Source: Deltaproteobacteria bacterium
Lineage (GTDB): Bacteria; Desulfobacterota; Binatia; UBA9968; JAJDTQ01
Assembly (NCBI GenBank): GCA_026712905.1
Contig: JAPOPM010000145.1
Coordinates: forward strand, 954-64,953
Direction of reading: 5' to 3'
Length of the DNA: 64,000 nt
The notes under the pieces were generated by a model. It saw only the letters and a program-made list of their open reading frames with translations. It made no database searches and was not told the DNA's origin. The translations under genes were made by a program, and so were the position numbers. This document shows positions 6,192 through 35,191 of this stretch, piece by piece (position 1 is the first letter of the stretch; each line of letters starts with the position of its first letter).

Positions 6192-6368
6192 GATGGTCCG
6201 GGTTTCTTGGTCAGGATGGCGGCAAAGTCAAGGTGTATTCCGGGTAATGGATCATGCCGCCAGAGTCCTGTTTGACATGTCCTGCGGTTACGGTTGGCGC
6301 GGCAGGGAAGTGGGCAACGGCGGACGGTGCGAGTCGCCCGTCCGGATGCAACGTGTCACAATGCGCCC

Positions 6369-7949
6369 ATGCGCTTCTTCAACACCACCGGGCCGGTCCA
6401 GTCCGAGAAGCACTACAGCATCCCGCCGCTGAGCCGGCTCGACATCGAAGACGTGCTGACCCTCATTCGCGACGAGCGCTACTTCGTGCTGCGCGCGCCG
6501 CGGCAAACCGGCAAGACCTCCGCCCTGCTGGCGTTGCGGGACCTGCTGAACAGCGGCGCCGAGGGCGATTACCGTTGCGTCTACGCCAACGTCGAGGCGG
6601 CGCAGGCTGCGCGCGAAGACACCGAGAAGGCCATGCGTGCCATTCTGGGCGAGCTGGCATCCTGGGCGCGCTCGACGCTGGGCGACGAAACGCTGGCTGA
6701 TGTATGGCCCGGCATTCTTGCCGAGGCGGGCCCGGCCGGGGCGCTCCGCGAGGTGCTGAGCCGCTGGTCCGAGGCCGACCCGAGGCCGCTGGTGCTGCTC
6801 ATCGACGAGATCGACGCGCTAGTGGGCGATTCCCTGCTGTCGGTGTTGCGCCAGCTTCGGGCGGGATATGTGCGGCGCCCGAAGAGCTTTCCGCAGAGCG
6901 TCGTCCTGTGCGGCGTGCGCGACGTGCGCGACTACCGCATCCATTCCAGCGCCGAGAAGGAGATCATCGCCGGCGGGAGCGCGTTCAACATCAAGGCCGA
7001 GTCGTTGCGTATGGGGGATTTCTCCGAGACCCAGGTGCGCGGGCTGCTGGCCCAGCATACGGCAGAGACGGCCCAGGTGTTCACCGAGGATGCCCTGGCG
7101 GAGGTGTGGACGCTCACCCGCGGCCAGCCGTGGCTGGTCAACGCGCTCGCCTACGATGTCTGCTTCCGCAACAAGGCGGGCCGGGACCGCGGCCGGGCCA
7201 TCGACGCGGGCGAGGTCACCGAAGCCCGGGAACGCCTCATCGCGCGCCGGGAGACCCACCTGGACCAGTTGGCGGACAAGCTCCAGGAAGAACGGGTGCG
7301 CCGGGTGGTGGGACCGTTGCTGAGCGGCGGGGATGAGCGGGAGTTCTCGGCCCGCGACATTGAATACGTCCGGGACCTGGGCTTGATCGCCAGCGACGGT
7401 CTGCTGCGCATCGCCAATCCCATCTACGCCGAGGTAGTGCCGCGGGAGCTCACCTATGCCGCCCAGGCCGGGCTGGTGGAAGAGACCGCCTGGTACCTGG
7501 ACGCCGACGGAGGCCTGGAGGTGGGTAAGCTGCTCACGGCCTTTCAGGAGTTCTTCCGCGAGCATTCCGAGCACTGGGTGGCGCGGTTCGACTACCGGGA
7601 GGCCGAGCCGCAGCTTCTCTTGCAGGCGTTCCTGCAGCGGGTGGTGAACGGCGGAGGCCGCATCGAGCGGGAATACGGCTTGGGCCGGATGCGTACCGAC
7701 CTGCTCATCGTATGGCCCCAGGGCGCGCGGACGCGCAAGTTCGTGATCGAGTGCAAGGTGCTGCACAAGAGCCTGGAGCGCACCATCGGCGACGGCCTGG
7801 AGCAGACCGCCGCCTACATGGACCGTTGCGCCGCGGAATCCGGTCACCTGATCATCTTTGACCGCGACGAGAGCCGGAGCTGGGAGGACAAGCTTTTCCA
7901 CCGCCGCGAACTGGCCGGCGGCGTCGAGATCGAGGTGTGGGGCATGTGA
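6369..7949 (+). CDS. AAA-ATPase-like protein with C-terminal PD-(D/E)XK nuclease-like domain (COG1672-type 'predicted ATPase')
   Basis: N-terminus MRFFNTTGPVQSEKHYSIPPLSRLD...YFVLRAPRQTGKTSALLAL (Walker A) and Walker B LLIDEIDAL. The C-terminus has MRTDLLIVWP...FVIECKVLHK, a D...ExK motif. The start is trimmed from the track ORF to the internal Met. Confidence 0.7.
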   Translation: MRFFNTTGPVQSEKHYSIPPLSRLDIEDVLTLIRDERYFVLRAPRQTGKTSALLALRDLLNSGAEGDYRCVYANVEAAQAAREDTEKAMRAILGELASWARSTLGDETLADVWPGILAEAGPAGALREVLSRWSEADPRPLVLLIDEIDALVGDSLLSVLRQLRAGYVRRPKSFPQSVVLCGVRDVRDYRIHSSAEKEIIAGGSAFNIKAESLRMGDFSETQVRGLLAQHTAETAQVFTEDALAEVWTLTRGQPWLVNALAYDVCFRNKAGRDRGRAIDAGEVTEARERLIARRETHLDQLADKLQEERVRRVVGPLLSGGDEREFSARDIEYVRDLGLIASDGLLRIANPIYAEVVPRELTYAAQAGLVEETAWYLDADGGLEVGKLLTAFQEFFREHSEHWVARFDYREAEPQLLLQAFLQRVVNGGGRIEREYGLGRMRTDLLIVWPQGARTRKFVIECKVLHKSLERTIGDGLEQTAAYMDRCAAESGHLIIFDRDESRSWEDKLFHRRELAGGVEIEVWGM

Positions 7950-8062
7950 GCCGCGTTAAACAGGACCGTGGCTTGTGGTCTGGTGGGGATGGATCTGCTG
8001 GTATACCGGTGCGGCGCCGTTTCAATCAACAAGGCGTTCGAACCATGTAGACAGACTTCACC

Positions 8063-8623
8063 TCACCTCTTTTGGTTCGCATCGCATCTTTTTTTGGCGA
8101 TTTGGTGGAGGTCCCATTCCCTCTTCGAAACAGCGGTTTGCGTAACTCCATCCCAAAGTCCGGGAAGTTTTTTAGTTCCAATAGTTCCAAAGTAGATCTC
8201 GCACATTGTACGTAGAGTAGTGGGCATCGGCCATTCTCGTTTCTCGATTTGCGCGAGTTCACCGGTGATGATGACTTGGAGATCCGCAAACAGTGCGGCT
8301 TTGCCTCCGCTCCCCGTAAAGGCCGGGTTGGACACGAGAGAACGGAAGTCCTTCAAGATGTCTTCCAGCGTTCTTTTATAGCCTCGCTTGGCCTCGCGGT
8401 TTATATAAATCAGTTTTTCAGATTCGTTAGGATCCTTCATGATCACGTATTCGAGTGTCCTGAAGTAGCGGTATCCGACGTTATCGGCTAGGGCGTTTGT
8501 TTTGTGGATGGAGCGCGCCAACGATTGCTCCGTAGTGTTTATTGCAATTCTCCAAGATGCCACGGCAGAAAAGCCGGCCACTATGAGTGGAACTACGAGC
8601 CCCATAACCCATTTATTTTGCAT
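8063..8623 (-). CDS. hypothetical membrane-anchored protein (orphan, low GC)
   Basis: About 45% GC in a 65%+ GC genome. Strong SD (AAGGAGGGG, 5 nt) before ATG 8623. N-terminal hydrophobic anchor MQNKWVMGLVVPLIVAGFSAVASW. I recognise no conserved domain. Confidence 0.5.
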   Translation of the reverse strand: MQNKWVMGLVVPLIVAGFSAVASWRIAINTTEQSLARSIHKTNALADNVGYRYFRTLEYVIMKDPNESEKLIYINREAKRGYKRTLEDILKDFRSLVSNPAFTGSGGKAALFADLQVIITGELAQIEKREWPMPTTLRTMCEIYFGTIGTKKLPGLWDGVTQTAVSKREWDLHQIAKKRCDANQKR

Positions 8624-8769
8624 GATCCCCTCCTTGCAGCCCATTTGAAGTCGAGTGTTGCCGACAATGAAAAAGGAACTCGAATAGTGCAAGAAAAAGG
8701 AATATTGTCAAGTCATTTCTACGGGTATCGGATCGGCGCACCGTGTTCCGACACACGTGCCGGTCGCGT

Positions 8770-9185
8770 TAGTTAGGGCAGCGAGAGATGGCCGTGATGA
8801 GCAAGAATCCCGACACAATGACCGTCGCAACTGCCGCCGGCTGACGTGAGCTGCTCGCGAAGCAGGCGATGGCGATCAGCGACGAGAAGAACGGCGTGGT
8901 GGCCCGTAAGGTCGCGGTGACCGCCCACACCGCCCTTGGGTGGGCGAGGTAACGGGCGCTGCCGGGCTGGATCAGCCCTACCAAGACGGAGATAGCAGTC
9001 CGGACGGAGGATACGGTCCCAGGGGAGCACGATCACGGCGAGGCTCCAGGGAGGACAGGACGTCGATGGCCGGGGAGACGACGATGGCGGGAATGGCGTT
9101 GGCGCCATCCCCTTCTTCAGGAGGATCAGGTTGATGGGAATGAAAAGCCCGCAGGCGAGGGCGAACGCGCGTCGTCCACGTACAG
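8770..9185 (-). pseudogene. degraded paralog of the EamA/DMT transporter gene (internal deletion)
   Basis: Translation VGLIQPGSARYLAHPRAVWAVTATLRATTPFFSSLIAIA aligns to residues about 100-170 of the intact EamA gene at 9647-10513. Positions 9100-9185 encode AFALACGLFIPINLILLKKG, matching its N-terminus. The middle part is missing. Confidence 0.5.
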
Positions 9186-9646
9186 GCCGGCTTCACCGAG
9201 GACCTGCTGGCTGGTGTTTCTGTCGTGGTTTAGGGCCTGCGGAGGAGGTGTTAGAATGGCTCCTTGTCGAGAGCGCATTCGAGGCGAGTTGATCAAACTG
9301 CTGTACAAAGACGGTGCGCATGGACAGAATAGTTGTTGACCTACAGGGGTTCACTTCGGGAAGCCGTGTGTTGCGCGCACCCTCATTGCCGTACAGGATA
9401 TCGTGGAACTGGTCGACGAGGAGATCCCTTTCGGTCAGATCATTTGTGACTGCTATCCCCAATCGAAGGTCGCGGACATCCATGCATGCATTCGATATGC
9501 AATTGCCTTGGTCGTGGCAGAGGACATCCACCTAAGGCCGACGCCGGCCTGAATGAGATTCTTGCTTGGGCGGAGAGGTGCCGGTTTCATCAGCGCCAAC
9601 GCTCGACGGCCGTACAACGCCCCATCCCTTTGAATCCGCCCCCGCC

Positions 9647-10513
9647 TCACCTTATCGCTGTAATCATCACCACCCCCACCACGATCAACCCCGCCGCCAC
9701 GACCTTCCGCGTCGTGATCACCTCCACGTCCCGCAGGAATATCGCCGAGAGCACCAGGCTGTAGAGCGGGCTCAGGCTCGCCAGCGGGGCGACGATGACG
9801 ACGTCGGAGAGGTGCAGGGACATGAAGATGCTGGCGACACCCAGGGTCACGGAGCAGCCGGCCAGGATGAAGTAGCCCAGGGCGCGGCGGTGGAAGCGCA
9901 CCATGGACCAGTTGCGCGAGACGGTCAGGGACAGGGCGATGGCGACGAGGGAGGTGCCGGTGGTGGTGGCGGCGCCGAGGATGGGGAGGCTGATGCCGGC
10001 GAGGCCGATCTTGCGGATGACCTGGGTGGAGCCGGCGACGAAGGCGCTGAGGAGCGGCAGCGTCACCAGGATGTTCATCCATGCGCCGCTCTTTTCCTCG
10101 CTCAGGCTCAGCAGGGTGATGCCGCCGACCACGAGGGCGGTGCCCGCGCCCACGGCCGGGGTGAGCTGCTCGCCCAGCACGGCGATGGCCAGGAGCGACG
10201 AGAACAGCGGCGTGGTGGCGCGGATCGGGGCGGTGACGGCCACCCCCACCTTCTCCACGCTCAGATAGGCGAGGAAGCGCGTGCCGCCGGGCTGGATCAC
10301 GCCCACCAGCACGAAGATCAGCAGCTCGGGGCGGAGGATCTCGTCCCACGGCAGCACCGCCAGGACGAAGCTCCAGAAGCACAGCACGTTGATGGCGAGG
10401 GAGAGGAGGGTGGCGCTGATGGGATTGCCGTGGGCCAATCCCTTCTTGAGGAAGGTCAAGTTGACGGCGGTGAAGAAGCCGCAGGCGAGCGCGAAGGCTT
10501 CGGCCGGGATCAC
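9647..10513 (-). CDS. EamA/DMT-family transporter
   Basis: 288 aa, about 10 TM helices, two EamA repeats (…GVIQPGGTRFLAYLSVEKVGVAVTAPIRATTPLFSSLLAIAVLGE…). Confidence 0.8.
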   Translation of the reverse strand: MIPAEAFALACGFFTAVNLTFLKKGLAHGNPISATLLSLAINVLCFWSFVLAVLPWDEILRPELLIFVLVGVIQPGGTRFLAYLSVEKVGVAVTAPIRATTPLFSSLLAIAVLGEQLTPAVGAGTALVVGGITLLSLSEEKSGAWMNILVTLPLLSAFVAGSTQVIRKIGLAGISLPILGAATTTGTSLVAIALSLTVSRNWSMVRFHRRALGYFILAGCSVTLGVASIFMSLHLSDVVIVAPLASLSPLYSLVLSAIFLRDVEVITTRKVVAAGLIVVGVVMITAIR

Positions 10514-24298: not shown

Positions 24299-24505
24299 GT
24301 GGCAAGAATTACCGTCGAAGACTGCCTCAACGAGGTTACCAACCGCTTCAAGCTCGTCATGCTCGGTTCCCAACGCACCAAGCAGCTCCTCAAGGGCGCC
24401 AAGCCCCTGGTGGACTCCGACAACCGCGAGATCGTCGTGGCCCTGCGCGAGATAGCCGCCGGCAAGGTGCGGCAAGCGCCGGTTGAATCGACGGAGCTCG
24501 AATAA
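24299..24505 (+). CDS. rpoZ: DNA-directed RNA polymerase subunit omega
   Basis: The 68-aa product begins [59 protein letters not shown] start with AGGAG 7 nt upstream. Confidence 0.8.
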
Positions 24506-24864
24506 ACCTCCACGCCAGCCCCCGCCTGTAGAGGCGTACCACAGGGCAATATTGCCTGCGGCTACCGTCGTCACGCTTCACCACTCTTGACAGCGTAACG
24601 ATACGGAGCGAGGACTTCCCTCGCTTATGTGTCGAAACGCGTTGCTGAGTTCCATCGCCGCCGATGAGCACACCGAAACGTCGACATTATGTCCCTCAGA
24701 TGACACTGCGTCAGTTTCCCGACGAAAGCGGATGGCTCTGCGGTTGTAGGCGGGGCGTAGGCCGACGGACAGGTTTGGCACGGTATTCGCTTCTACTGTG
24801 GTTTGAGTCAGAACTCGACTACTACCCGGTTCGGTTGTGCGATCCTTGAGTATCACATAGAGCA

Positions 24865-25269
24865 GTGGCCTTACCCTTCGAATTCGTCGTAGACGGTTCT
24901 CCCGTGTCTCAACAAGCCCGCAATGTTGAGCGCCGAAGGCAGTGGACCCGGAACGTCAGGAGCGGGGCGGCAACGCGTTGGGGTGTGGATTCACCGTTTG
25001 TAGGGCCGGTCATGGTGACCGTGACTCACTTCTTCGACCGAGGGGCTCCGGATGTCGACAATATCCCCAAGCTGATTCTGGACGCCTTGAAGGGACTGGT
25101 TTATTCTGATGACTCCCAGGTAACGGATATGCTCTGTCGTAAGAGAAACCTGAATGCCATTTTGCGAGTTCAAAGTTCATCACTTGTTTTGAATGAGGCG
25201 CTTGCCCAAGGCAGAGCATTCCTCCACGTCGTTGTGGACAATGCGCCGATTCAGGAGGTGATTTCCTGA
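24865..25269 (+). CDS. rusA: RusA-family Holliday-junction resolvase-like endonuclease
   Basis: 134 aa. …VMVTVTHFFDRGAPDVDNIPKLILDALKGLVYSDDSQVTDM aligns with the E. coli RusA catalytic core (…[39 protein letters not shown]). GTG start, about 50% GC. Confidence 0.7.
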   Translation: MALPFEFVVDGSPVSQQARNVERRRQWTRNVRSGAATRWGVDSPFVGPVMVTVTHFFDRGAPDVDNIPKLILDALKGLVYSDDSQVTDMLCRKRNLNAILRVQSSSLVLNEALAQGRAFLHVVVDNAPIQEVIS

Positions 25270-25919
25270 TGGAAGACGCAACCATTCTCGAATCAAGACT
25301 CGCCGACGTAACGGCAGAGGAATACCGCAGCAAGGGCTACGCCGTGTCCCGAGACGAGTCCCTGGATTTCTTGCCCGGTTTCCGCGCGGATTTGGTCGCC
25401 CGGAAAGGTGACGAAACAAAGGTGATCGAAGTGAAATGCCGGTCCACGCTGACCGCGACTCCCGAAGTGACAAAGCTGGCGCAACTGCTCAACTCAAAGC
25501 CTGGGTGGAGCTTCGAGTTGATTCTTGTGGGTGAACCCGAGGGCCTGGAGTCACCTGACGGCGCGAAGTCGTTCGAGGGAGAGAACATCCTTCAGCGGAT
25601 TGCGCAGGCTGAAAGAGTGCTTGAATCAGGTTTTGCCGAGGCGGCCTTTCTTCTTGCCTGGTCGGCATGCGAGGCCCTGTTGAGGATGATGATCGAGGAA
25701 GAGGGGGTCTCGATCAAACGTATAACGACATCGGGCTACGTCCTCAATCTTGCGGTCGTTCATGGCGTCATCTCAAGGGACGACTATCAGGGTCTCGCCG
25801 ACATGATGAAATGCAGGAACGCCATTGCCCACGGGTTCGGCATTAACAAGTTTGGTGATGAGCAGGTGACGGTACTGATCGAGACTACGAAGCGACTCGC
25901 CCGCATGCCTTCGCAGTAG
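25269..25919 (+). CDS. two-domain protein: N-terminal PD-(D/E)XK (YraN/Hjc-like) nuclease fold + C-terminal HEPN-like (Rx4HG) domain
   Basis: N-terminus GFRADLVARKGDETKVIEVKCRS (D…ExK). C-terminus MKCRNAIAHGFG (R-x4-H HEPN signature, DUF4145-like). ATG overlaps the rusA-like stop (TGATG), with AGGAGG upstream. This is a motif-level inference. Confidence 0.5.
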   Translation: MEDATILESRLADVTAEEYRSKGYAVSRDESLDFLPGFRADLVARKGDETKVIEVKCRSTLTATPEVTKLAQLLNSKPGWSFELILVGEPEGLESPDGAKSFEGENILQRIAQAERVLESGFAEAAFLLAWSACEALLRMMIEEEGVSIKRITTSGYVLNLAVVHGVISRDDYQGLADMMKCRNAIAHGFGINKFGDEQVTVLIETTKRLARMPSQ

Positions 25920-25988
25920 CGACCCAGCGGCTATTCGCGCGATGATCTGGACCATGCTGGCTCCCATGCGGAAGAATCGAGTCGGCAG

Positions 25989-27017
25989 TCAGGCTCGCTG
26001 CGGCTCGATGATGACCTTGAGCGAATCCTGTGCGTTGGCCACGAGCTGAAAGCCCCTCTCCGTCTCTGCAAGGGACAGGCGGTGGGTGACAAGCTCGTCC
26101 ACGCGCACCTTTCCACCCGCCAACAGATCCACGGCATCCTTCAAATCCTGCGGACTCGCGCCATAGGAAGTGACGAGGCCGACCTCGTCGCGCCACATCT
26201 CGTATAGCGGCATGGGCACTTCGTGCCCGGCTGGAGTGGAGGCGAAGAAGAGCAGCTTGCCGCCGCGCTCGACGCTCTGGAACGCTTGCCGGATCGCCGG
26301 GGCGGCGCCGGTGCAGACGATCACGAGATCCGCCAGCCGGCCGTCGCAGGCTTCGCGCACGCGCGCCGGCACGTCGTCGGTGGCGTGGAAGGTGTGGTGG
26401 GCGCCTAGGGAGCGGGCCAGGCGCAGGCGTTCCTCGTTGATGTCGGTGGCGGCCAGGGCCTTGACCCCGCGGCTCCGGGCCACCTGGACGTGCAGCAGCC
26501 CGGCGATGCCGGTGCCGATGACCAGCACGTTTTCCTGCAACGGCGCGCGGGCGTGGTCTTGGGCCCGCACGACGCAGCCCAGCGGCTCGACAAAGGAGCC
26601 CGCTTCGAAGGAAAGCGAGTCCGGAAGCAGGAAGGTTCCGCAATCCACGTTGACCTTGGGCAGCCGCAGGTACTCGGCGAAGCCGCCGGGATCGAAGTGG
26701 GTCTCGCGCATGAGCTGACACACTGAGGCGTGTCCGGAGCGGCAGTGGTGGCAGTCGTTGCAGGGAACGTGGTGGGTGGTGACGATGCGGTCGCCGGGTG
26801 CGAATCCGGTGACCCCGGCGCCCACCTCGGCCACCTCGCCGGTGACCTCGTGGCCGAGCACCCTGGGCGCCTGCTGGCGGCGGTACCACTCGAGCACGTC
26901 GGTGCCGCAGATGCCGCTGGCCTCCACCCGCATCAGCAACTCGCCCGGCCCGGCCTTGGGAACCGGCAGTTCCTCCAGCCGAACGTCATCGTTGCTGTAG
27001 TACATGGCGACGCGCAT
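25989..27017 (-). CDS. Zn-dependent alcohol/polyol dehydrogenase (MDR family; threonine/sorbitol dehydrogenase-like)
   Basis: GHEVTGEV with catalytic Zn ligands; structural Zn CNDCHHCRSGHASVC; Rossmann VIGTGIAGL. The start is trimmed to MRVAMYYSND because the track ORF runs into the repeat cluster. Confidence 0.85.
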   Translation of the reverse strand: MRVAMYYSNDDVRLEELPVPKAGPGELLMRVEASGICGTDVLEWYRRQQAPRVLGHEVTGEVAEVGAGVTGFAPGDRIVTTHHVPCNDCHHCRSGHASVCQLMRETHFDPGGFAEYLRLPKVNVDCGTFLLPDSLSFEAGSFVEPLGCVVRAQDHARAPLQENVLVIGTGIAGLLHVQVARSRGVKALAATDINEERLRLARSLGAHHTFHATDDVPARVREACDGRLADLVIVCTGAAPAIRQAFQSVERGGKLLFFASTPAGHEVPMPLYEMWRDEVGLVTSYGASPQDLKDAVDLLAGGKVRVDELVTHRLSLAETERGFQLVANAQDSLKVIIEPQRA

Positions 27018-27059: not shown

Positions 27060-27295
27060 CTGAACACCCACCACCGTCATTCCCGCGAAAGCGGGAATCC
27101 AGGGGTGGCGAGGCGGGGAAACGCCGTTGTAGTGCCCCACCACCGCCCCTGGATTCCCGCTTCCGCGGGAATGACGTTCTGTTACGTGGTAGCTTGGTGA
27201 GTATTGACACAGCCTGTCTCGCGGGAATGACGTTCCGTAGGGTCCTTGCCTCACGGGTATTGACACAGCCGCTTCCGCGGGAATGACGGTAGTGA
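27060..27295. repeat. intergenic repeat cluster: MITE-like element (28-bp TIRs + 45-bp spacer) followed by two half-units
   Basis: GTCATTCCCGCGAAAGCGGGAATCCAGG…GGATTCCCGCTTCCGCGGGAATGAC is near-identical to the 20596-20703 element. TGACACAGCC…CGCGGGAATGAC half-units follow. Confidence 0.65.
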
Positions 27296-27342: not shown

Positions 27343-28119
27343 CTAGCCGGCCGCGCGTTCCGACGACGGCCGCGACGACTCGTAGATGCCGTAGGCTTCC
27401 TCGACCGAGGCGCCGCCGTGGACGATGGCCCGCACCGCCTGGATCATCCCCGCCGGGCTGTCGGACTGGAAGATGTTGCGGCCCATGTCGACGCCCACCG
27501 CGCCGTGGTCCACGGCGTTCTTGGTGAGCTCCAGGGCTTCCATCTCCGGGGTCTTCTTGCCGCCGGCCACGATCACCGGAATCGGGCAACTGTTGACCAG
27601 GTTCTCGAACCCCTCGCAGTAGTAGGTCTTGACGATGTGGGCGCCCAGCTCGGCGGCGATGCGGCACGAAAGACTCAGATAGCGCTCGTCCCGGGCCATG
27701 TTCGTGCCCACCGCGGTGACGGCGAGCACGGGGATGCCGTACCTCTCGCCCTCGTCCACCAGCTTGGCGAGGCTCACCAGTGTCTCCTTCTCGAACTCCG
27801 AGCCCACGAAGATCGACAGCGCCATGGCCGACACGTTGAGGCGGATGGCGTCCTCGATGGAAACGGTGATGTCCTCGTTGGACAGTTCCTTCAGGATGCT
27901 GGTGCCGCCGGACACCCGCAGCACCACCGGCCCCTGCATGTTGGCATCCACGGCGGTCCGCAGCACGCCGCGGGTGAGCATGATGGCGTCCGCGTGGGGC
28001 AGTAGCGGCTCGATGGTCTCGCGTGGCTGCTCCAGCCCGCTCGTCGGGCCGAGAAAGTAGCCGTGGTCCACGGCCAACATCACGCAACGTCCATCATTCG
28101 GCTGGATGATGCGCGCCAT
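27343..28119 (-). CDS. class I (DhnA-type) fructose-bisphosphate aldolase-family protein
   Basis: DhnA/ADH-synthase family motifs: Schiff-base Lys in HIVKTYY, VIVAGG. The start is taken at the Met with GGAG 8 nt upstream; 28143 is the alternative. Confidence 0.8.
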   Translation of the reverse strand: MARIIQPNDGRCVMLAVDHGYFLGPTSGLEQPRETIEPLLPHADAIMLTRGVLRTAVDANMQGPVVLRVSGGTSILKELSNEDITVSIEDAIRLNVSAMALSIFVGSEFEKETLVSLAKLVDEGERYGIPVLAVTAVGTNMARDERYLSLSCRIAAELGAHIVKTYYCEGFENLVNSCPIPVIVAGGKKTPEMEALELTKNAVDHGAVGVDMGRNIFQSDSPAGMIQAVRAIVHGGASVEEAYGIYESSRPSSERAAG

Positions 28120-28269
28120 TCTGTTCTCCATACCCCAGTGCATGTGATCCCCCCTGCGTTCTTGATGTTTCGGTGATGCGGGTCGGGATTGAATCCGACT
28201 TGAGGCACGACACTACCACATACCCGGTTCAGCCGCGAGTCTCGTTTCCCCCGGGCAGACGCGCCAAAC

Positions 28270-28510
28270 GCCCGGAATCGTCAGTCCCGCGGAACGGGCG
28301 GTGTCAACCTCATGGAGCAGAGCCCCCTCGACCCGCCATTCCCGCGAAACAGGCTGTGACAAACCCGTGAGGCAAAAACCCTACGGAACGTCATCCCCGC
28401 GAAAGCTTGCCCTCGCCCCCGATCGGGGGCGGGAATCCAGGGGGGGCGGGGCCCCTCCACCCTACGGAACGTCATTCCCGCGGAAGCGGGAATCCAGGGG
28501 GGGCGGGGCC
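28270..28510. repeat. intergenic repeat cluster (three to four degenerate-to-intact copies of the ATTCCC-N8-GGGAAT palindromic unit)
   Basis: …GTCAGTCCCGCGGAACGGGCGGTGTCAA…CCATTCCCGCGAAACAGGCTGTGACAA…GTCATCCCCGCGAAAGC…GGGAATCCAGGGGGGGCGGGGCCC…GTCATTCCCGCGGAAGCGGGAATCCAGGGGGGGCGGGGCCC. Confidence 0.6.
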
Positions 28511-31559: not shown

Positions 31560-32171
31560 CTACAAAGGCTCGGAGCGATGTTCGGTTTCCGGCATCCACA
31601 CCAGCTGATTCTTCCAGACTTTCTCCTGTGCGATCTGGACGCACACTCCCCAGATCGCCAAGAGCGCCTCCGGGCTGTTCCTCGGCAGTGGCTTGTCTTC
31701 AATCAGCGTGTAACGCCACCGCTCATAGCCAGCCCCTTTCGGGCCGGAGATAAGAGTCAGGAAATGGTCCACTCTCCCAATAGCAAGGTAGGAGTGTAGC
31801 GATCGGAATCGCTCGTAGAACTCTGGCACGGTGTTTTGCGTCGGCTCTTCGATCTTCGAAAATAGCCAACCCAAGTTGTGCGTCCGGAACGGATACCGCC
31901 AAGCGTTACTCTCTCCCACGTCGGCGTTCTCCGGGACTGCAAGATCGATCAACTCTGCGATGGTCAGCCCTGTTTGCTCTGCAATCAGGTACTTTAGCGT
32001 TTGCTCAAGACCGCTATAGGCAGCAGTGATCACCGTCCAGTTCCTTGCGATGTCGGTGCCCGGATGTACTTCCTGCGTCAACGGCTCCTTTCCCAGCATT
32101 TCCTTAGTCTTCTTGTGCGCCGTCAGGAGCCGCTGCACCTTCTCGATCCTTGCCTCTCTCGGCATCGGCAT
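31560..32171 (-). CDS. hypothetical protein (orphan, about 50% GC) downstream of fic
   Basis: 203-aa ORF, 27 nt after the Fic stop. I recognise no family. It contains an R-x4-H-like element (RFRSLH). Low GC suggests horizontal origin. Confidence 0.45.
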   Translation of the reverse strand: MPMPREARIEKVQRLLTAHKKTKEMLGKEPLTQEVHPGTDIARNWTVITAAYSGLEQTLKYLIAEQTGLTIAELIDLAVPENADVGESNAWRYPFRTHNLGWLFSKIEEPTQNTVPEFYERFRSLHSYLAIGRVDHFLTLISGPKGAGYERWRYTLIEDKPLPRNSPEALLAIWGVCVQIAQEKVWKNQLVWMPETEHRSEPL

Positions 32172-32198
32172 GGGCGTTACTTCCTGCTTGGCTGAGTG

Positions 32199-33350
32199 TC
32201 ATCGCCGCTGGGGCTCAGTCTCAATGGCCACCGGGCAGACGAATTCGTAGCTAGTGCTCCGACCCCCAGTCTTGCTACGGACCAGGATTCCACGCTCTAT
32301 CAGATCGCGAATGTCTCGATTCGCCGTGTCCTGCGAGCAGCGGTTTATCGTTGCCCACTTCGACGAGGTGAGTTTCCCTTCGAAGCCGTCCAGAAGCCGG
32401 TTGAGGATCTTCACTTGGCGCTCGTTTAGGGGCTCGTGGGCATGGGCTTCCCAAAAGCGGGCCTTTGTCAGCACGGTGGCGAGCGTTTCCTGAGCGTTCT
32501 CGATGGCGCGTGCGAGACATTCGAGAAACCAGACCTGCCAATCGATGACATCCAGGCTACCTTTTTGGGTTGCCTCAAGGATGTCGTAGTAGGCGTTGCG
32601 CTCCAGGCGGATCTGGGCGGACATGCTGTAGAATCGCTCGGGGCTCTCTTCCGACCGGGCCAGCGCCATGTCGGCGATGGCCCGTGCGATACGTCCGTTG
32701 CCGTCGTCGAAAGGATGAATGGTGACGAACCAGAGATGAGCGATGCCGGCGGCGAGCACGGGCTCCATCGACTGTGTGCCTTCGAACCATTCCAGGAACC
32801 TGGATATCTCGTCCCCGAGGCGCTCGGCAGGCGGAGCGGTATAGTGAACGCGCTGGCGACCGACCGGGCCTGAGACCACCTCCATCGGCCCGTCCCCGTC
32901 GTCGCGCCATTGGCCGACGCGAATCCGGCGCATGCCGCTGCGCCCGGTCGGGAACAGGGCGGCGTGCCACGAGAACAGCCGTTCTTCGGTCAGGGGCTCG
33001 GCATAGTTCCGAGTAGCGTCGAGCGCCATTTCGACGGCGCCGTCGATGTTGCGATCAGCCGCCGGCAGGCCGCCGATATCAAGGCCGAGGCGGTTTGCAA
33101 TCGACGAGCGGACCTGGTCGGGGGCGAGCATCTCTCCCTCGATCTCGTTCGTCTTCACGACATCCTCGGTGAGCGTGCGCAACGTGGCTTGGCTGCGCAT
33201 CTCGAAACCCAGTGCCTCCATGCGGCCAAGCAGTCTTCCCTGGATGTGGCGTGTGTGCGCGAGGTGCTCGGCGAGCCGGGCCGTATCCTGCTGGAACCGC
33301 GGCCAATCCGGACGTTGCCAGATGTATGCAGGATATTCTCCGTGCAACAT
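32199..33350 (-). CDS. fic: Fic-family protein (class II, N-terminal inhibitory helix; C-terminal winged-helix)
   Basis: Fic motif HPFDDGNGRIARA (HPFx[D/E]GNGR). An N-terminal TNEIEG matches the [S/T]xxxE[G/N] auto-inhibition motif. Confidence 0.85.
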   Translation of the reverse strand: MLHGEYPAYIWQRPDWPRFQQDTARLAEHLAHTRHIQGRLLGRMEALGFEMRSQATLRTLTEDVVKTNEIEGEMLAPDQVRSSIANRLGLDIGGLPAADRNIDGAVEMALDATRNYAEPLTEERLFSWHAALFPTGRSGMRRIRVGQWRDDGDGPMEVVSGPVGRQRVHYTAPPAERLGDEISRFLEWFEGTQSMEPVLAAGIAHLWFVTIHPFDDGNGRIARAIADMALARSEESPERFYSMSAQIRLERNAYYDILEATQKGSLDVIDWQVWFLECLARAIENAQETLATVLTKARFWEAHAHEPLNERQVKILNRLLDGFEGKLTSSKWATINRCSQDTANRDIRDLIERGILVRSKTGGRSTSYEFVCPVAIETEPQRR

Positions 33351-33534
33351 GCGGAGAATATAGCACCCACTCTCTTCATTGACAAGTTAATCTCCGCCTA
33401 TATTGCGGAGGTAAGGAGCTTTATTCTCCGCGACCGTGCTGAAAGATCCTTCTAGTTTTCACCGATGGGAAGACGAAGTTGGTGAGAATCGGAACCGCGC
33501 CTACACTTCCTATTGAGCGTAGGAGCATTGCATT

Positions 33535-33564
33535 TTGTCAGTTTCATTGGTATTCTTCTGACAA
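33535..33564. promoter_or_regulatory. inverted repeat TTGTCAG-N16-CTGACAA immediately upstream of abiEi-like gene (candidate operator)
   Basis: 7-bp perfect arms about 20 nt before the start codon in an AT-rich divergent promoter region. AbiEi-type antitoxins are known autorepressors binding inverted repeats. Confidence 0.35.
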
Positions 33565-33585
33565 AATTGGTTGCGAGAAACCATC

Positions 33586-34182
33586 ATGCCCAGCCTGTCC
33601 AAACAAATCATGCAGCACACCGGCTCTCTTCGGGAGGGCACGCCGATCTGCGCCGGCCCGCTGCTTCATCTCGGCAGCCGAGCGGCGGTCGATCAGGCGC
33701 TCTCTCGCCTCGCGCGTTCCGAGAGGCTGATGCGGATCTGCCAAGGGATCTACATGAAGCCGGTCGAAACCCGGTTCGGGCAGTGCGCACCCAGCATCGA
33801 TAAGGGGATTGAGGCGCTCGCGGCCATGTGGGGCGAGACCATCGTCCCCTGCGGTGGTGCCGCGGCGCATGTTCTCGGCCTCACAACCCAGATTCCAGTG
33901 CGGTCGGTCTATCTCACATCCGGCCCCGATCGCTGCCTGCGGTTCGGTAGTCTGGAAGTCGAACTGCGTCATGCCCCGCGCTGGCAGCTCACGGCTCCCC
34001 GCCGCAGGGCCGGCGATGTCATCCGTGCCTTGGCCTGGCTTGGTCCGGCCGAGATCCGGGAGGGGCTGGAAGCTGTTGTGCCAAGCCTCTCTCGCGAGGA
34101 TGTGGAAGAGCTTGCCGAGGCGCGGGCGACCATGCCGCATTGGATGGCGGAGCCGGTGAGTGCCCTTGTCACGAATGGCTGA
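33586..34182 (+). CDS. AbiEi-like antitoxin / transcriptional regulator (DUF6088-like)
   Basis: About 200-aa protein immediately upstream of, and overlapping, an AbiEii nucleotidyltransferase gene. The size and pairing fit the type IV AbiE module. A TTG at 33571 is an alternative start. Confidence 0.6.
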   Translation: MPSLSKQIMQHTGSLREGTPICAGPLLHLGSRAAVDQALSRLARSERLMRICQGIYMKPVETRFGQCAPSIDKGIEALAAMWGETIVPCGGAAAHVLGLTTQIPVRSVYLTSGPDRCLRFGSLEVELRHAPRWQLTAPRRRAGDVIRALAWLGPAEIREGLEAVVPSLSREDVEELAEARATMPHWMAEPVSALVTNG

Positions 34183-35191
34183 GGTATCGTTCCAGTCTTT
34201 GGCGGCCCGCGACAGGCGGGAGGCACTGAGAGCAGCGCAGGAAGCGAGCGGGATGCGGGCCTTCCTCCTGGAGAAGGATATCTGGGTCGTTCAGACGTTG
34301 CGCGTCCTGTTCGACTTGCCGTTCGGCTCCGACATTGTGTTCAAGGGCGGCACGTCGCTGGCAAAGGCCTACCAGGTAATCCGCCGCTTCTCGGAGGATA
34401 TCGACGTTACCTACGACATCCGCGCCTTCGCACCGGACCTCGTGACCGGCGCGGGCGCCGAGGCGCTGCCACCGACGCGAAGCCAGGAGCAACGCTGGAG
34501 CAGCGCCATCCGCTCGCGTCTCGCCGCATGGGTCCGGGGCGAGTGCCTCCCGGCGGTTGGCGAGTGCCTCGCGCGTGAAGGTTTCTCAGCCGAGGTCCGC
34601 GCCTCAGGAGAACGGCTGCTCGTTCGTTATGAGTCGTTGTTCGACGACCCTGGATTCGTCAGGCCCGAAGTCATGGTTGAGTTTGGCGCGCGCGGGACGG
34701 GCGAACCGCACGAAAAGCGTCCGGTGGCGTGTGACGCGGCGCCTCATCTTCCTGGCATCGTTCTGCCAACAGCTTCTCCGTCGGTCATGCTGGCCGAACG
34801 TACATTCTGGGAAAAGGCCACGGCCATTCACGTGTTCTGCCGTCAGCAGCGCCACCGGGGCGAGCGACTGTCCCGCCACTGGCACGACGTCGCACGGTTG
34901 GACGCGGCCGGATACGCCGGCAACGCCCTCGCTGAGCGCGAGCTCGCGTTGACGGTAGCCCGGCACAAGGCGGCGTTTTTTCGCGAGAAGGACGTCGCGG
35001 GCAAGTGGATAGACTATGAGACCGCCGTTTCGGGCGGGCTTCAACTGGTCCCGGACGGCCTCGCTCGGGACGCGCTCGCTGAGGACTACGACAGGATGGT
35101 TTCCGACGGCATGCTGTTGGGCGATGCCGAACCGTTCGACGCGCTCCTCGAGCGTTGCCTTGATCTCGAGGCAAGAGCCAATTTGCGCTGA
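34175..35191 (+). CDS. nucleotidyltransferase AbiEii/AbiGii toxin-family protein
   Basis: Hallmark IVFKGGTSLAKAY…DIDV (NTase GS…D.D motif). The start overlaps the abiEi-like stop by 8 nt. Confidence 0.8.
   Translation: MAEVSFQSLAARDRREALRAAQEASGMRAFLLEKDIWVVQTLRVLFDLPFGSDIVFKGGTSLAKAYQVIRRFSEDIDVTYDIRAFAPDLVTGAGAEALPPTRSQEQRWSSAIRSRLAAWVRGECLPAVGECLAREGFSAEVRASGERLLVRYESLFDDPGFVRPEVMVEFGARGTGEPHEKRPVACDAAPHLPGIVLPTASPSVMLAERTFWEKATAIHVFCRQQRHRGERLSRHWHDVARLDAAGYAGNALAERELALTVARHKAAFFREKDVAGKWIDYETAVSGGLQLVPDGLARDALAEDYDRMVSDGMLLGDAEPFDALLERCLDLEARANLR

Follow-up and report, generated by a model that had tools for sequence, protein, structure and literature searches.

The subject of this work is a small islet of low guanine-plus-cytosine (GC) content in a 64,000-nucleotide stretch of DNA from a Deltaproteobacteria bacterium (GTDB lineage Desulfobacterota; Binatia; GenBank assembly GCA_026712905.1, contig JAPOPM010000145.1, positions 954 to 64,953), hereafter the window. 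The islet holds two genes, one for a RusA-like protein and one for a fusion of a restriction-endonuclease (REase) domain with a HEPN domain; their coordinates are collected in Table 1. The rpoZ stop lies at 24505, with bioB and a NUDIX gene upstream of the islet, and on the other side the zinc alcohol dehydrogenase gene (25989-27017, minus strand) runs convergent to the pair. The TGA of the RusA-like gene (25267-25269) and the ATG of the fusion gene have one base in common, in the sequence TGATG. A preliminary description, made from the letters alone, had read the locus in this way, as a GTG-started RusA gene overlapping a 216-aa open reading frame (ORF) at TGATG between rpoZ and a dehydrogenase, and coordinates and codons agree. 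The non-coding stretch ahead of the RusA gene, given there as 360 bp, measures 359 bp, and the absence of an integrase noted there extends to transposases, neither being present within ~7 kb on either side of the islet.

The islet stands out from its surroundings in composition. Its GC content is 56.4%, compared with 66.2% for the whole window (standard deviation 3.3% in windows of the same size), which places it about three standard deviations low as one of the three low-GC patches of the window. The RusA gene has 54.6% GC and the fusion gene 56.5%, with a minimum for the islet of 51% in a 300-nt window. At third codon positions (GC3) the content is 60-69% in the islet, compared with 87% in bioB and the dehydrogenase gene. 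Low GC had been pointed out in the preliminary description and is borne out; the figure of about 50% attached to it was too low.

Table 1. Features of the islet, the accessory cargo carried between rpoZ and the dehydrogenase gene in the window and its syntenic relatives, and genes of the other low-GC patches of the window.
Feature	Position	Strand	Description
Whole accessory islet	24506..25988	.	Between rpoZ stop and zinc alcohol dehydrogenase; 1483 bp
Leader, non-coding	24506..24864	+	359 bp, rpoZ stop to RusA-like start; left part of the low-GC islet
RusA-family junction endonuclease gene	24865..25269	+	134 aa, GTG start; dedicated subfamily
RusA catalytic core	25051..25113	+	D63-V-D65-N66...K69...D82-D83; from alignment to 1q8r, conservation and codons
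216-aa two-domain protein	25269..25919	+	ATG start; AHJR-like REase + linker + HepT-like HEPN
PD-(D/E)xK domain, residues 1-88	25269..25532	+	E8, D41 (25389-25391), E54-V-K56 (25428-25436)
Inter-domain linker, residues 89-103	25533..25577	+	'EPEGLESPDGAKSFE'; predicted disordered, conserved in closer relatives
HEPN domain, residues 104-211, five helices	25578..25901	+	R183-N-A-I-A-H188-G-F190 at 25815-25838
Cargo of rpoZ-dehydrogenase site	window		Pair only
Cargo of rpoZ-dehydrogenase site	L003 2700-6660		NERD, Ser/Thr kinase with Sel1 repeats, pair
Cargo of rpoZ-dehydrogenase site	L008 4600-6650		Kinase fragment, pair
Cargo of rpoZ-dehydrogenase site	L004 4100-6660		SLFN-AlbA_2/HATPase_c_4, PRiA4_ORF3, fusion without RusA
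Cargo of rpoZ-dehydrogenase site	L005 5724-6650		Frameshifted fusion pseudogene only
Unknown ORF, 203 aa	31560-32171	minus	Second low-GC patch
DUF4172-Fic protein	32199-33350	minus	Second low-GC patch
DUF6088 + AbiEii type IV toxin-antitoxin/abortive-infection pair	33571-34182, 34160-35191	plus	Second low-GC patch
AAA-ATPase ORF (AAA_35 / AAA_22)	6294-7949	plus	7200-9900 low-GC patch
209-aa ORF, no Pfam match	8063-8692	minus	7200-9900 low-GC patch

The first protein belongs to the RusA family as judged by its Pfam match, its predicted fold and its intact catalytic residues. Pfam RusA (PF05866) matches residues 22-95 with 48.6 bits (cut-off 22.8), and the top PHROG matches are phage RusA families (phrog_140, 'RusA-like resolvase', E = 5.9e-13). 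When the AlphaFold2 (AF2) model (mean predicted local distance difference test, pLDDT, 80.5) is compared with the PDB by Foldseek, the top seven matches are all E. coli RusA, with E of 1e-5 to 3e-4 and target-normalised template-modelling (TM) scores of 0.64-0.75. D63, D65, K69 and D82/D83 align with D70, D72, K76 and D91 of E. coli RusA. In 66 non-redundant pairs of the two proteins, D63, D65, N66, D73 and D83 are kept without exception, K69 in 65 and D82 in 64. The activity that characterises the RusA family is Mg-dependent cleavage of four-way junctions by a homodimer, which for the window protein is a prediction. Compared with the RusA of lambdoid prophages (E. coli DLP12; 1q8r and 2h8c), the fold and the constellation of catalytic Asp and Lys residues are alike. 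The subfamily in the window departs from the DLP12 protein by a helical insertion of ~20 residues (residues 96-118) and by invariant residues of its own (S15, W27, R92 and K93), and it is encoded next to a REase-HEPN gene and not within a phage replication or recombination module. Many database entries for this subfamily are too short. Public gene calls start at an internal ATG and leave a RusA protein of only 85 aa, omitting 24865-25011 of the window (the same is seen at L009, 7744-8001), and other records run to 99-121 aa, with the conserved N-terminal 48 residues cut off. We favour the GTG start over the 85-aa call because the homologues are ~134 aa long and conserved from residue 2.

The second protein is, on the strength of its sequence and its model, an Hjc-type PD-(D/E)xK domain joined to a HepT-like HEPN domain, and both halves could be verified. 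Pfam AHJR-like (PF18743) covers residues 7-113 with E = 5.6e-19 and 68.3 bits (cut-off 26.1), and there are weak matches to Hjc, Mrr_cat, HepT-like and HEPN_RiboL-PSP. The AF2 model (pLDDT 79.8) presents an alpha-beta3-alpha2-beta domain of REase type at residues 1-86. A profile of the N-terminal domain retrieves from the PDB the Hjc ST1444 (2eo0, E = 3e-4), with further Hjc chains at ~0.06, and its Foldseek matches are Hjc (4tkd, 2wiw and 1ob8), EndoMS, Bax1 and McrC. The Hjc matches have probabilities of 0.9-1.0 and modest target-normalised TM scores of ~0.4; the Foldseek E-values for the fusion are weak (0.003-0.3) because every match spans half of the model. The spacing of the E-D-E-K motif and the fold over residues 1-88 are the same as in archaeal Hjc and bacterial YraN, from which the domain differs by its fusion to HEPN. 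E8 is kept in 60 of the 66 pairs, D41 in 63, E54 in 56 and K56 in 62.

The C-terminal domain carries the HEPN signature, an R-x4-6-H motif that opens the last long helix of an all-alpha bundle, with R183 kept in 65 of the 66 pairs, N184 in 64, and H188 and G189 in all; E135 (65) and R139 (66) are further conserved residues of this domain. Its Foldseek matches are the HEPN structures 2hsb (target-normalised TM 0.69), 1wol, 1o3u and 4nqf and the HepT structures 6m6w, 5yep and 7bxo. When 27 diverse C-terminal domains were compared with Pfam, 15 matched HepT-like and 10 HEPN_RiboL-PSP, and nearly all others matched HEPN-clan families. The window protein itself stays below the cut-offs of HepT-like PF01934 (16.8 bits, cut-off 23.5) and NCBIfam HepT_toxin (15.6 bits, cut-off 60); the HepT-like gathering score of 23.5 is passed by the members on pTi_CFBP2177 (25.8) and in Azospirillum (24.0). 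A sequence-only search of the PDB with a profile of the domain retrieved no HEPN chain, so the assignment is made through motif, fold and Pfam clan matches. The RusA family, the YraN/Hjc-like REase fold and the HEPN Rx4HG motif had all been named in the preliminary description, and each has held: the first by profile, fold and alignment to 1q8r, the second by PF18743 together with the Hjc profile and fold matches, and the third by motif, fold and clan profiles.

Between the two domains the model falls below a pLDDT of 50 (residues 89-101), and yet the linker is conserved: 'GEPExLxSPxGA' is near-invariant in relatives of at least 47% identity, E89, P90, E91, L93, S95, P96 and G98 are near-invariant in alignment A1, and position 91 is E or D in 62 of the 66 pairs. 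The linker may be a motif for docking. Counted as representatives of 50%-identity clusters, the fusion family is large: 1789 pass E<=1e-3 and 904 pass E<=1e-10, and its members are mostly ~215-230 aa long and match end to end. Two architectural variants were seen among the representatives listed (P0242, P0245, P0253, P0255 and P0261). One has an N-terminal extension of ~165 aa that resembles transmembrane segments and reaches 382 aa (L016 5506-6654, P0242). The other, of 333-354 aa, is longer at the C-terminus by ~120 conserved residues that match nothing in Pfam; the copy at L107 (8409-9410) belongs here.

The pairing of the two genes is not due to chance; they form a near-obligate conserved unit. 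We surveyed eight species-representative genomes with a fusion homologue and added 80 metagenome loci in which identity of the fusion to the window protein goes down to 29%. In six of the eight genome loci the fusion gene is directly preceded by a RusA-like gene on the same strand; two of the six are from Dehalococcoidia, where identity to the window proteins is 49-56% for the fusion and 45-50% for RusA. The same arrangement is found in 71 of the 83 non-redundant loci; in seven others the contig ends before the RusA position and five lack RusA, which makes 71 of the 76 informative loci. RusA adjacency persists where the fusion is ~30% identical to the query. Conversely, all five RusA-subfamily proteins picked by their similarity to RusA (5/5) are followed by an AHJR-like gene. 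The recurrence of the two homologues side by side, which the preliminary description had put forward as a check, is therefore found in both directions. Of 11 cases in which the genes were called or annotated, 10 have them abutting or sharing 1-7 nt. The two proteins also diverge in step, pairwise identity in one correlating with that in the other (r = 0.90, Mantel p = 0.001, 66 non-redundant pairs). Despite pairwise identities down to 20-24%, all three catalytic motifs are kept in 56-66 of the 66 pairs.

The exceptions to the pairing are varied. A RusA remnant is still discernible in L034; in L005 RusA is lost and the fusion is frameshifted; in L004 a PRiA4_ORF3 gene replaces RusA and the fusion is intact. 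A 332-aa HSDR_N-like PD-(D/E)xK protein is encoded directly upstream of an intact fusion in L015 (4907-5905) and L019 (531-1529), and the tail of such a protein is found in L027 (35-319), which is truncated upstream. In this one sponge-metagenome lineage (L015, L019 and L027) one nuclease partner, RusA, seems to have given way to another of HSDR_N-like type. All-against-all clustering of 183 neighbouring ORFs gave no recurrent neighbour that could be a third component, and a small antitoxin or other conserved third gene was rejected on this ground. Three chimeric ORFs (P0304, P0244 and P0370), in which an N-terminal part of RusA-like type runs into a C-terminal part of the fusion, were considered as Rosetta-stone evidence and set aside, as part of one domain is lacking (in P0304 it is the catalytic core of the REase); deletion or faulty assembly probably accounts for them.

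The pair spans at least Binatia, Chloroflexota and Alphaproteobacteria, and one of the RusA homologues is recorded as coming from Actinomycetota. It occurs on the A. tumefaciens plasmid pTi_CFBP2177, where the genes are annotated as 'RusA family...' and 'HepT-like ribonuclease domain-containing protein', on pT136b of Rhizobium sp. T136 (L121), where it adjoins DUF6088-AbiEii, IS5 and a restriction endonuclease, and on p4 of Azospirillum lipoferum 4B; further replicons with the pair are from R. phaseoli, R. gallicum and Methylobacterium bullatum. Several copies are found among genes of defence systems. In L107 hsdM and hsdS of a type I restriction-modification (R-M) operon are separated by the pair, which adjoins a PLD-SNF2 protein; in L016, on an element that also encodes a D5/PriCT primase, the pair follows directly 3' of hsdM; in L002 DarT and Macro genes are 1.4 kb away. 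GmrSD_N plus HEPN genes and an MmeI-like type IIG enzyme are nearby at separate loci, and the mobile-element neighbours comprise a serine recombinase, IS110, DDE transposases and Replic_Relax. The copies are distributed as if a small autonomous cassette could insert at any site and somewhat favoured the surroundings of defence or mobile-element genes. A HATPase_c_3 gene (MORC/GHKL-type, 'ATP-binding protein') flanks the pair on pTi_CFBP2177 (L120 5661-7595) and pT136b (L121 7208-9187), the two copies being 86% identical and the pair itself 64%. We considered it as a third component and rejected it, since it adjoins the pair on these two related plasmids only. In L113 the pair has a HATPase_c_3 gene at a distance of 3.4 kb, which is unrelated to the two on the plasmids.

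The syntenic relatives of the window locus are Candidatus Binatia metagenome-assembled genomes, and synteny of the flanks holds at L001, L003, L004, L005 and L008. The flanking housekeeping proteins are 87-97% identical in these sister genomes, compared with 74-82% for the fusion and 64-76% for RusA, and what lies between rpoZ and the dehydrogenase gene changes from one genome to the next (Table 1). This intergenic region is thereby documented as a variable accessory-gene site in Binatia. Low GC and GC3, patchy distribution over several phyla and plasmids, and turnover in sister genomes give the pair a mobile, accessory character.

The 359-bp leader is presumably the seat of the promoter. Promoter and terminator scans of the plus strand gave nothing useful, with no sigma-70-like site, and direct or inverted repeats and att-like sites at the islet flanks were limited to short matches at chance level. 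The sole ORF of the leader (24664-24849, 61 aa) has no Pfam match and no relative in any fetched locus, and we dropped the suspicion, raised by 'RRHYVPQ', that it is a DUF4238 remnant. An RNA element or antitoxin RNA was likewise rejected: no Rfam family matched anywhere in the window, the folding z-score of the leader (-1.45) is unremarkable, and its sequence is unconserved across related loci.

Elsewhere in the window, a second low-GC patch (~59%, 31560-35191) lies 6-9 kb downstream of the islet. The DUF6088-AbiEii pair that it contains is the one found directly beside the RusA/REase-HEPN genes on pT136b. The lowest GC of the window, 55% at ~8000-9480, falls within the 7200-9900 patch, which may be another accessory islet. 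Clusters of palindromic repeats resembling repetitive extragenic palindromic (REP) sequences, with the core CGTCATTCCCGCGAAAGCGGGAATCC and arms that are 86-100% complementary, lie at 27064-27294 and 28279-28509 and occupy both intergenic regions around a DeoC-like gene (27343-28143). They give rise to spurious ORFs with the motifs 'FPRKRESRGGG' and 'IPAFAGMT'.

Comparison with known systems delimits what is new. The REase-HEPN fusion was already noted under HEPN-M/DUF86 by Anantharaman et al. 2013 (PMC3710099) and corresponds to Pfam PF18743; the 216-aa protein shares both architecture and family with these AHJR-like fusions. The description there is of the domain fusion only, and RusA is not mentioned in text or supplement. 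In PADLOC-DB v2.0.0 the RusA-like protein has no match and the fusion matches just RTasHEPN (E = 0.017 over 20 residues). NCBI annotation treats the two genes separately, and no description of a RusA partner of REase-HEPN was found in the literature, the search extending to papers that are not subscription-only. The new element is the dedicated RusA-fold partner and its co-divergence with the fusion; the fusion itself is known. The preliminary description had been unable to assign the pair to any named system, and this stands insofar as no PADLOC model or paper naming the pair was found; it does not stand for the fusion, which had been described.

The HepT-MntA type VII toxin-antitoxin (TA) system (Shewanella SO_3166/SO_3165; 5yep, 6m6w and 7bxo) has in common with the pair the HepT-like fold with its R-x4-H motif, a compact two-gene operon with overlapping frames and the HEPN gene second, and a mobile, patchy distribution. 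It differs in that the partner here is a RusA-family DNase and that an Hjc-like REase domain precedes HEPN in the same protein. In HepT (6m6w and 7bxo) the residue AMPylated by MntA is the Tyr two residues past the His (RX4HXY); the equivalent position here is Phe190, and a Phe is found in 64 of the 66 members. Neither the window nor any of the annotated loci has an MNT nucleotidyltransferase gene next to the pair. Because Phe190 replaces the Tyr and no MNT gene is present, control of HEPN must differ from that of type VII TA systems. PrrC and RloC are likewise HEPN RNases, and the pair is sometimes found in or after type I hsd operons (L107, L016 and L015). It differs from them in having no ABC-ATPase N-domain, in a linkage to R-M that is confined to a minority of loci and in its two added DNases. 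Embedding in R-M operons suggests a back-up layer linked to restriction.

We put a probability of roughly 0.55 on the reading that the islet is a self-contained, horizontally mobile conflict module of two genes and three nucleases, of TA, abortive-infection or anti-mobile-element type. RusA and Hjc are dimeric nucleases selective for DNA junctions, and the catalytic R-x4-H site of HEPN RNases is a composite formed at the dimer interface. The two co-translated proteins would act jointly, probably assembled from dimers into one complex. Branched DNA, for instance four-way junctions and the forks of replicating or recombining phage or plasmid DNA, would be recognised or cleaved by RusA and the Hjc-like domain, and the HEPN domain would cleave RNA, leading to arrest of the cell or of the invader. 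A coupling of this kind between branched-DNA recognition or cleavage and RNA cleavage could serve in abortive infection or against plasmids, or for addiction in the manner of a TA system. The simplest candidate for the regulator of HEPN would be the RusA-like protein that is co-translated with it, with the disordered, conserved linker and the RusA-specific helical insertion as candidate contact elements. Prokaryotic HEPN domains are overwhelmingly parts of conflict systems (PMC3710099), and a function of the pair in defence or abortive infection is inferred.

A bolder form of this proposal, which we offer as a tentative possibility, is that the pair is an immune sensor-effector that reads the shape of DNA and not its sequence. 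Four-way and forked DNA builds up when phages and plasmids replicate by recombination. This DNA would be detected by the RusA dimer and the Hjc-like domain, and detection would license the HEPN RNase, perhaps through the conserved disordered linker, leading to translation shutdown; the junction DNases would meanwhile cripple the concatemers of the invader.

Several observations weigh against a conflict module. The window copy lies between rpoZ and the dehydrogenase gene with nothing defence-like within 5 kb. Most of the 150 neighbouring ORFs sampled at 26 metagenome loci are of housekeeping type, for example RuBisCO, NifH, aconitase and TrmD, and few of them are integrases, TnpB, PIN, DUF433, AbiE or R-M genes. 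Enrichment of the pair in defence islands, which the preliminary description had also proposed as a check, is thus modest: there are R-M, DarT, AbiE and IS neighbours, and there are many housekeeping settings. On pTi_CFBP2177 the neighbours are the DNA-repair genes ligD, imuA, imuB and dnaE2, with which a repair role fits equally well. E54 of the ExK motif is gone in ~10 of the 66 members (~15%), a loss that further separates the domain from Hjc and YraN and leaves the REase motif incomplete; DNA cleavage by this domain may therefore not be universal, and the domain may be a DNA-binding sensor and not a resolvase. Finally, the RusA-like protein is the more conserved of the two (median identity 43%, compared with 34% for the fusion) and keeps its catalytic residues, which is atypical of a simple antitoxin.

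The last point bears equally on the alternative that the pair is a classical two-gene TA (addiction) module, with REase-HEPN as the toxin and the RusA-like protein as an antitoxin that neutralises it either by binding to it or enzymatically, in the manner of type VII systems, and with stabilisation of mobile elements in place of anti-phage defence as its function. The gene order, the sizes and the overlaps of 1-7 nt are TA-like, HepT-like HEPN domains are proven TA toxins (the fold matches 5yep, 6m6w and 7bxo), copies are dispersed among housekeeping genes and large plasmids as TA loci are, and other TA pairs (DarTG, AbiE, PIN and DUF433) are found nearby. On the other side, the catalytic residues of the RusA-like protein are kept in 64-66 of the 66 pairs and its conservation exceeds that of the presumed toxin, so the protein is itself an enzyme, and as the more conserved partner it would be an effector or a sensor and not a passive antitoxin. 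The searchable literature gave no RusA-family antitoxin. The loci L004, L015 and L019 count on both sides: persistence of the fusion alone or with another upstream partner is in line with a TA toxin, and intact fusions without RusA imply that the HEPN protein is tolerated in its absence or that another partner substitutes for it. We consider a TA module of this kind unlikely.

A second alternative makes the pair an accessory DNA repair or recombination module, a fitness factor on plasmids and islands in which two junction or fork DNases and an RNase process stalled forks, R-loops and recombination intermediates. RusA and Hjc are genuine Holliday-junction resolvase families, and the catalytic residues are under strong purifying selection. 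To the imuA-imuB-dnaE2 mutasome and ligD beside the pair on pTi_CFBP2177 can be added an HhH-GPD glycosylase within 4 kb (L108) and AP endonuclease 2 within 5 kb (L113); a clear repair-gene neighbourhood is seen just once, however. No role in bacterial DNA repair is established for HEPN RNases (PMC3710099), and the patchy distribution, the foreign composition and the loss, replacement or pseudogenisation in sister genomes speak against this alternative, as does the insertion inside R-M operons, which is unexpected for repair. A repair module is rather improbable. A decayed prophage remnant, in which a phage RusA and a neighbouring phage nuclease would be adjacent by descent with no joint function, had been suggested in the preliminary description and fits with RusA as a classical lambdoid-prophage gene, with phage RusA as the best PHROG matches and with the low GC of the islet, but it is rejected as very improbable: no relative of the fusion was found in 2.9 million viral contigs or 50,697 phage genomes, viral RusA proteins score just 26-53 bits on the subfamily model compared with 90-218 for full-length pair-associated ones, no phage genes flank the pair across ~100 loci, and the pair is kept as an isolated, co-diverging unit across phyla.

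HEPN RNases are central to the accessory nucleases of CRISPR types III and VI, to abortive infection and to TA systems, and the main question for these systems is how the RNase is kept silent and then activated. Here is a large family in which the usual MNT antitoxin is replaced by a Holliday-junction nuclease and in which HEPN is itself fused to a second nuclease of junction type. The module is widespread, cleanly delimited and unnamed, yet built of familiar domains, and copies in culturable Agrobacterium, Rhizobium and Azospirillum strains make it accessible to experiment. If the module does sense or attack branched DNA, a structure-based trigger would be added to bacterial immunity, and RusA would gain a role outside phage recombination, the first in defence for its fold.

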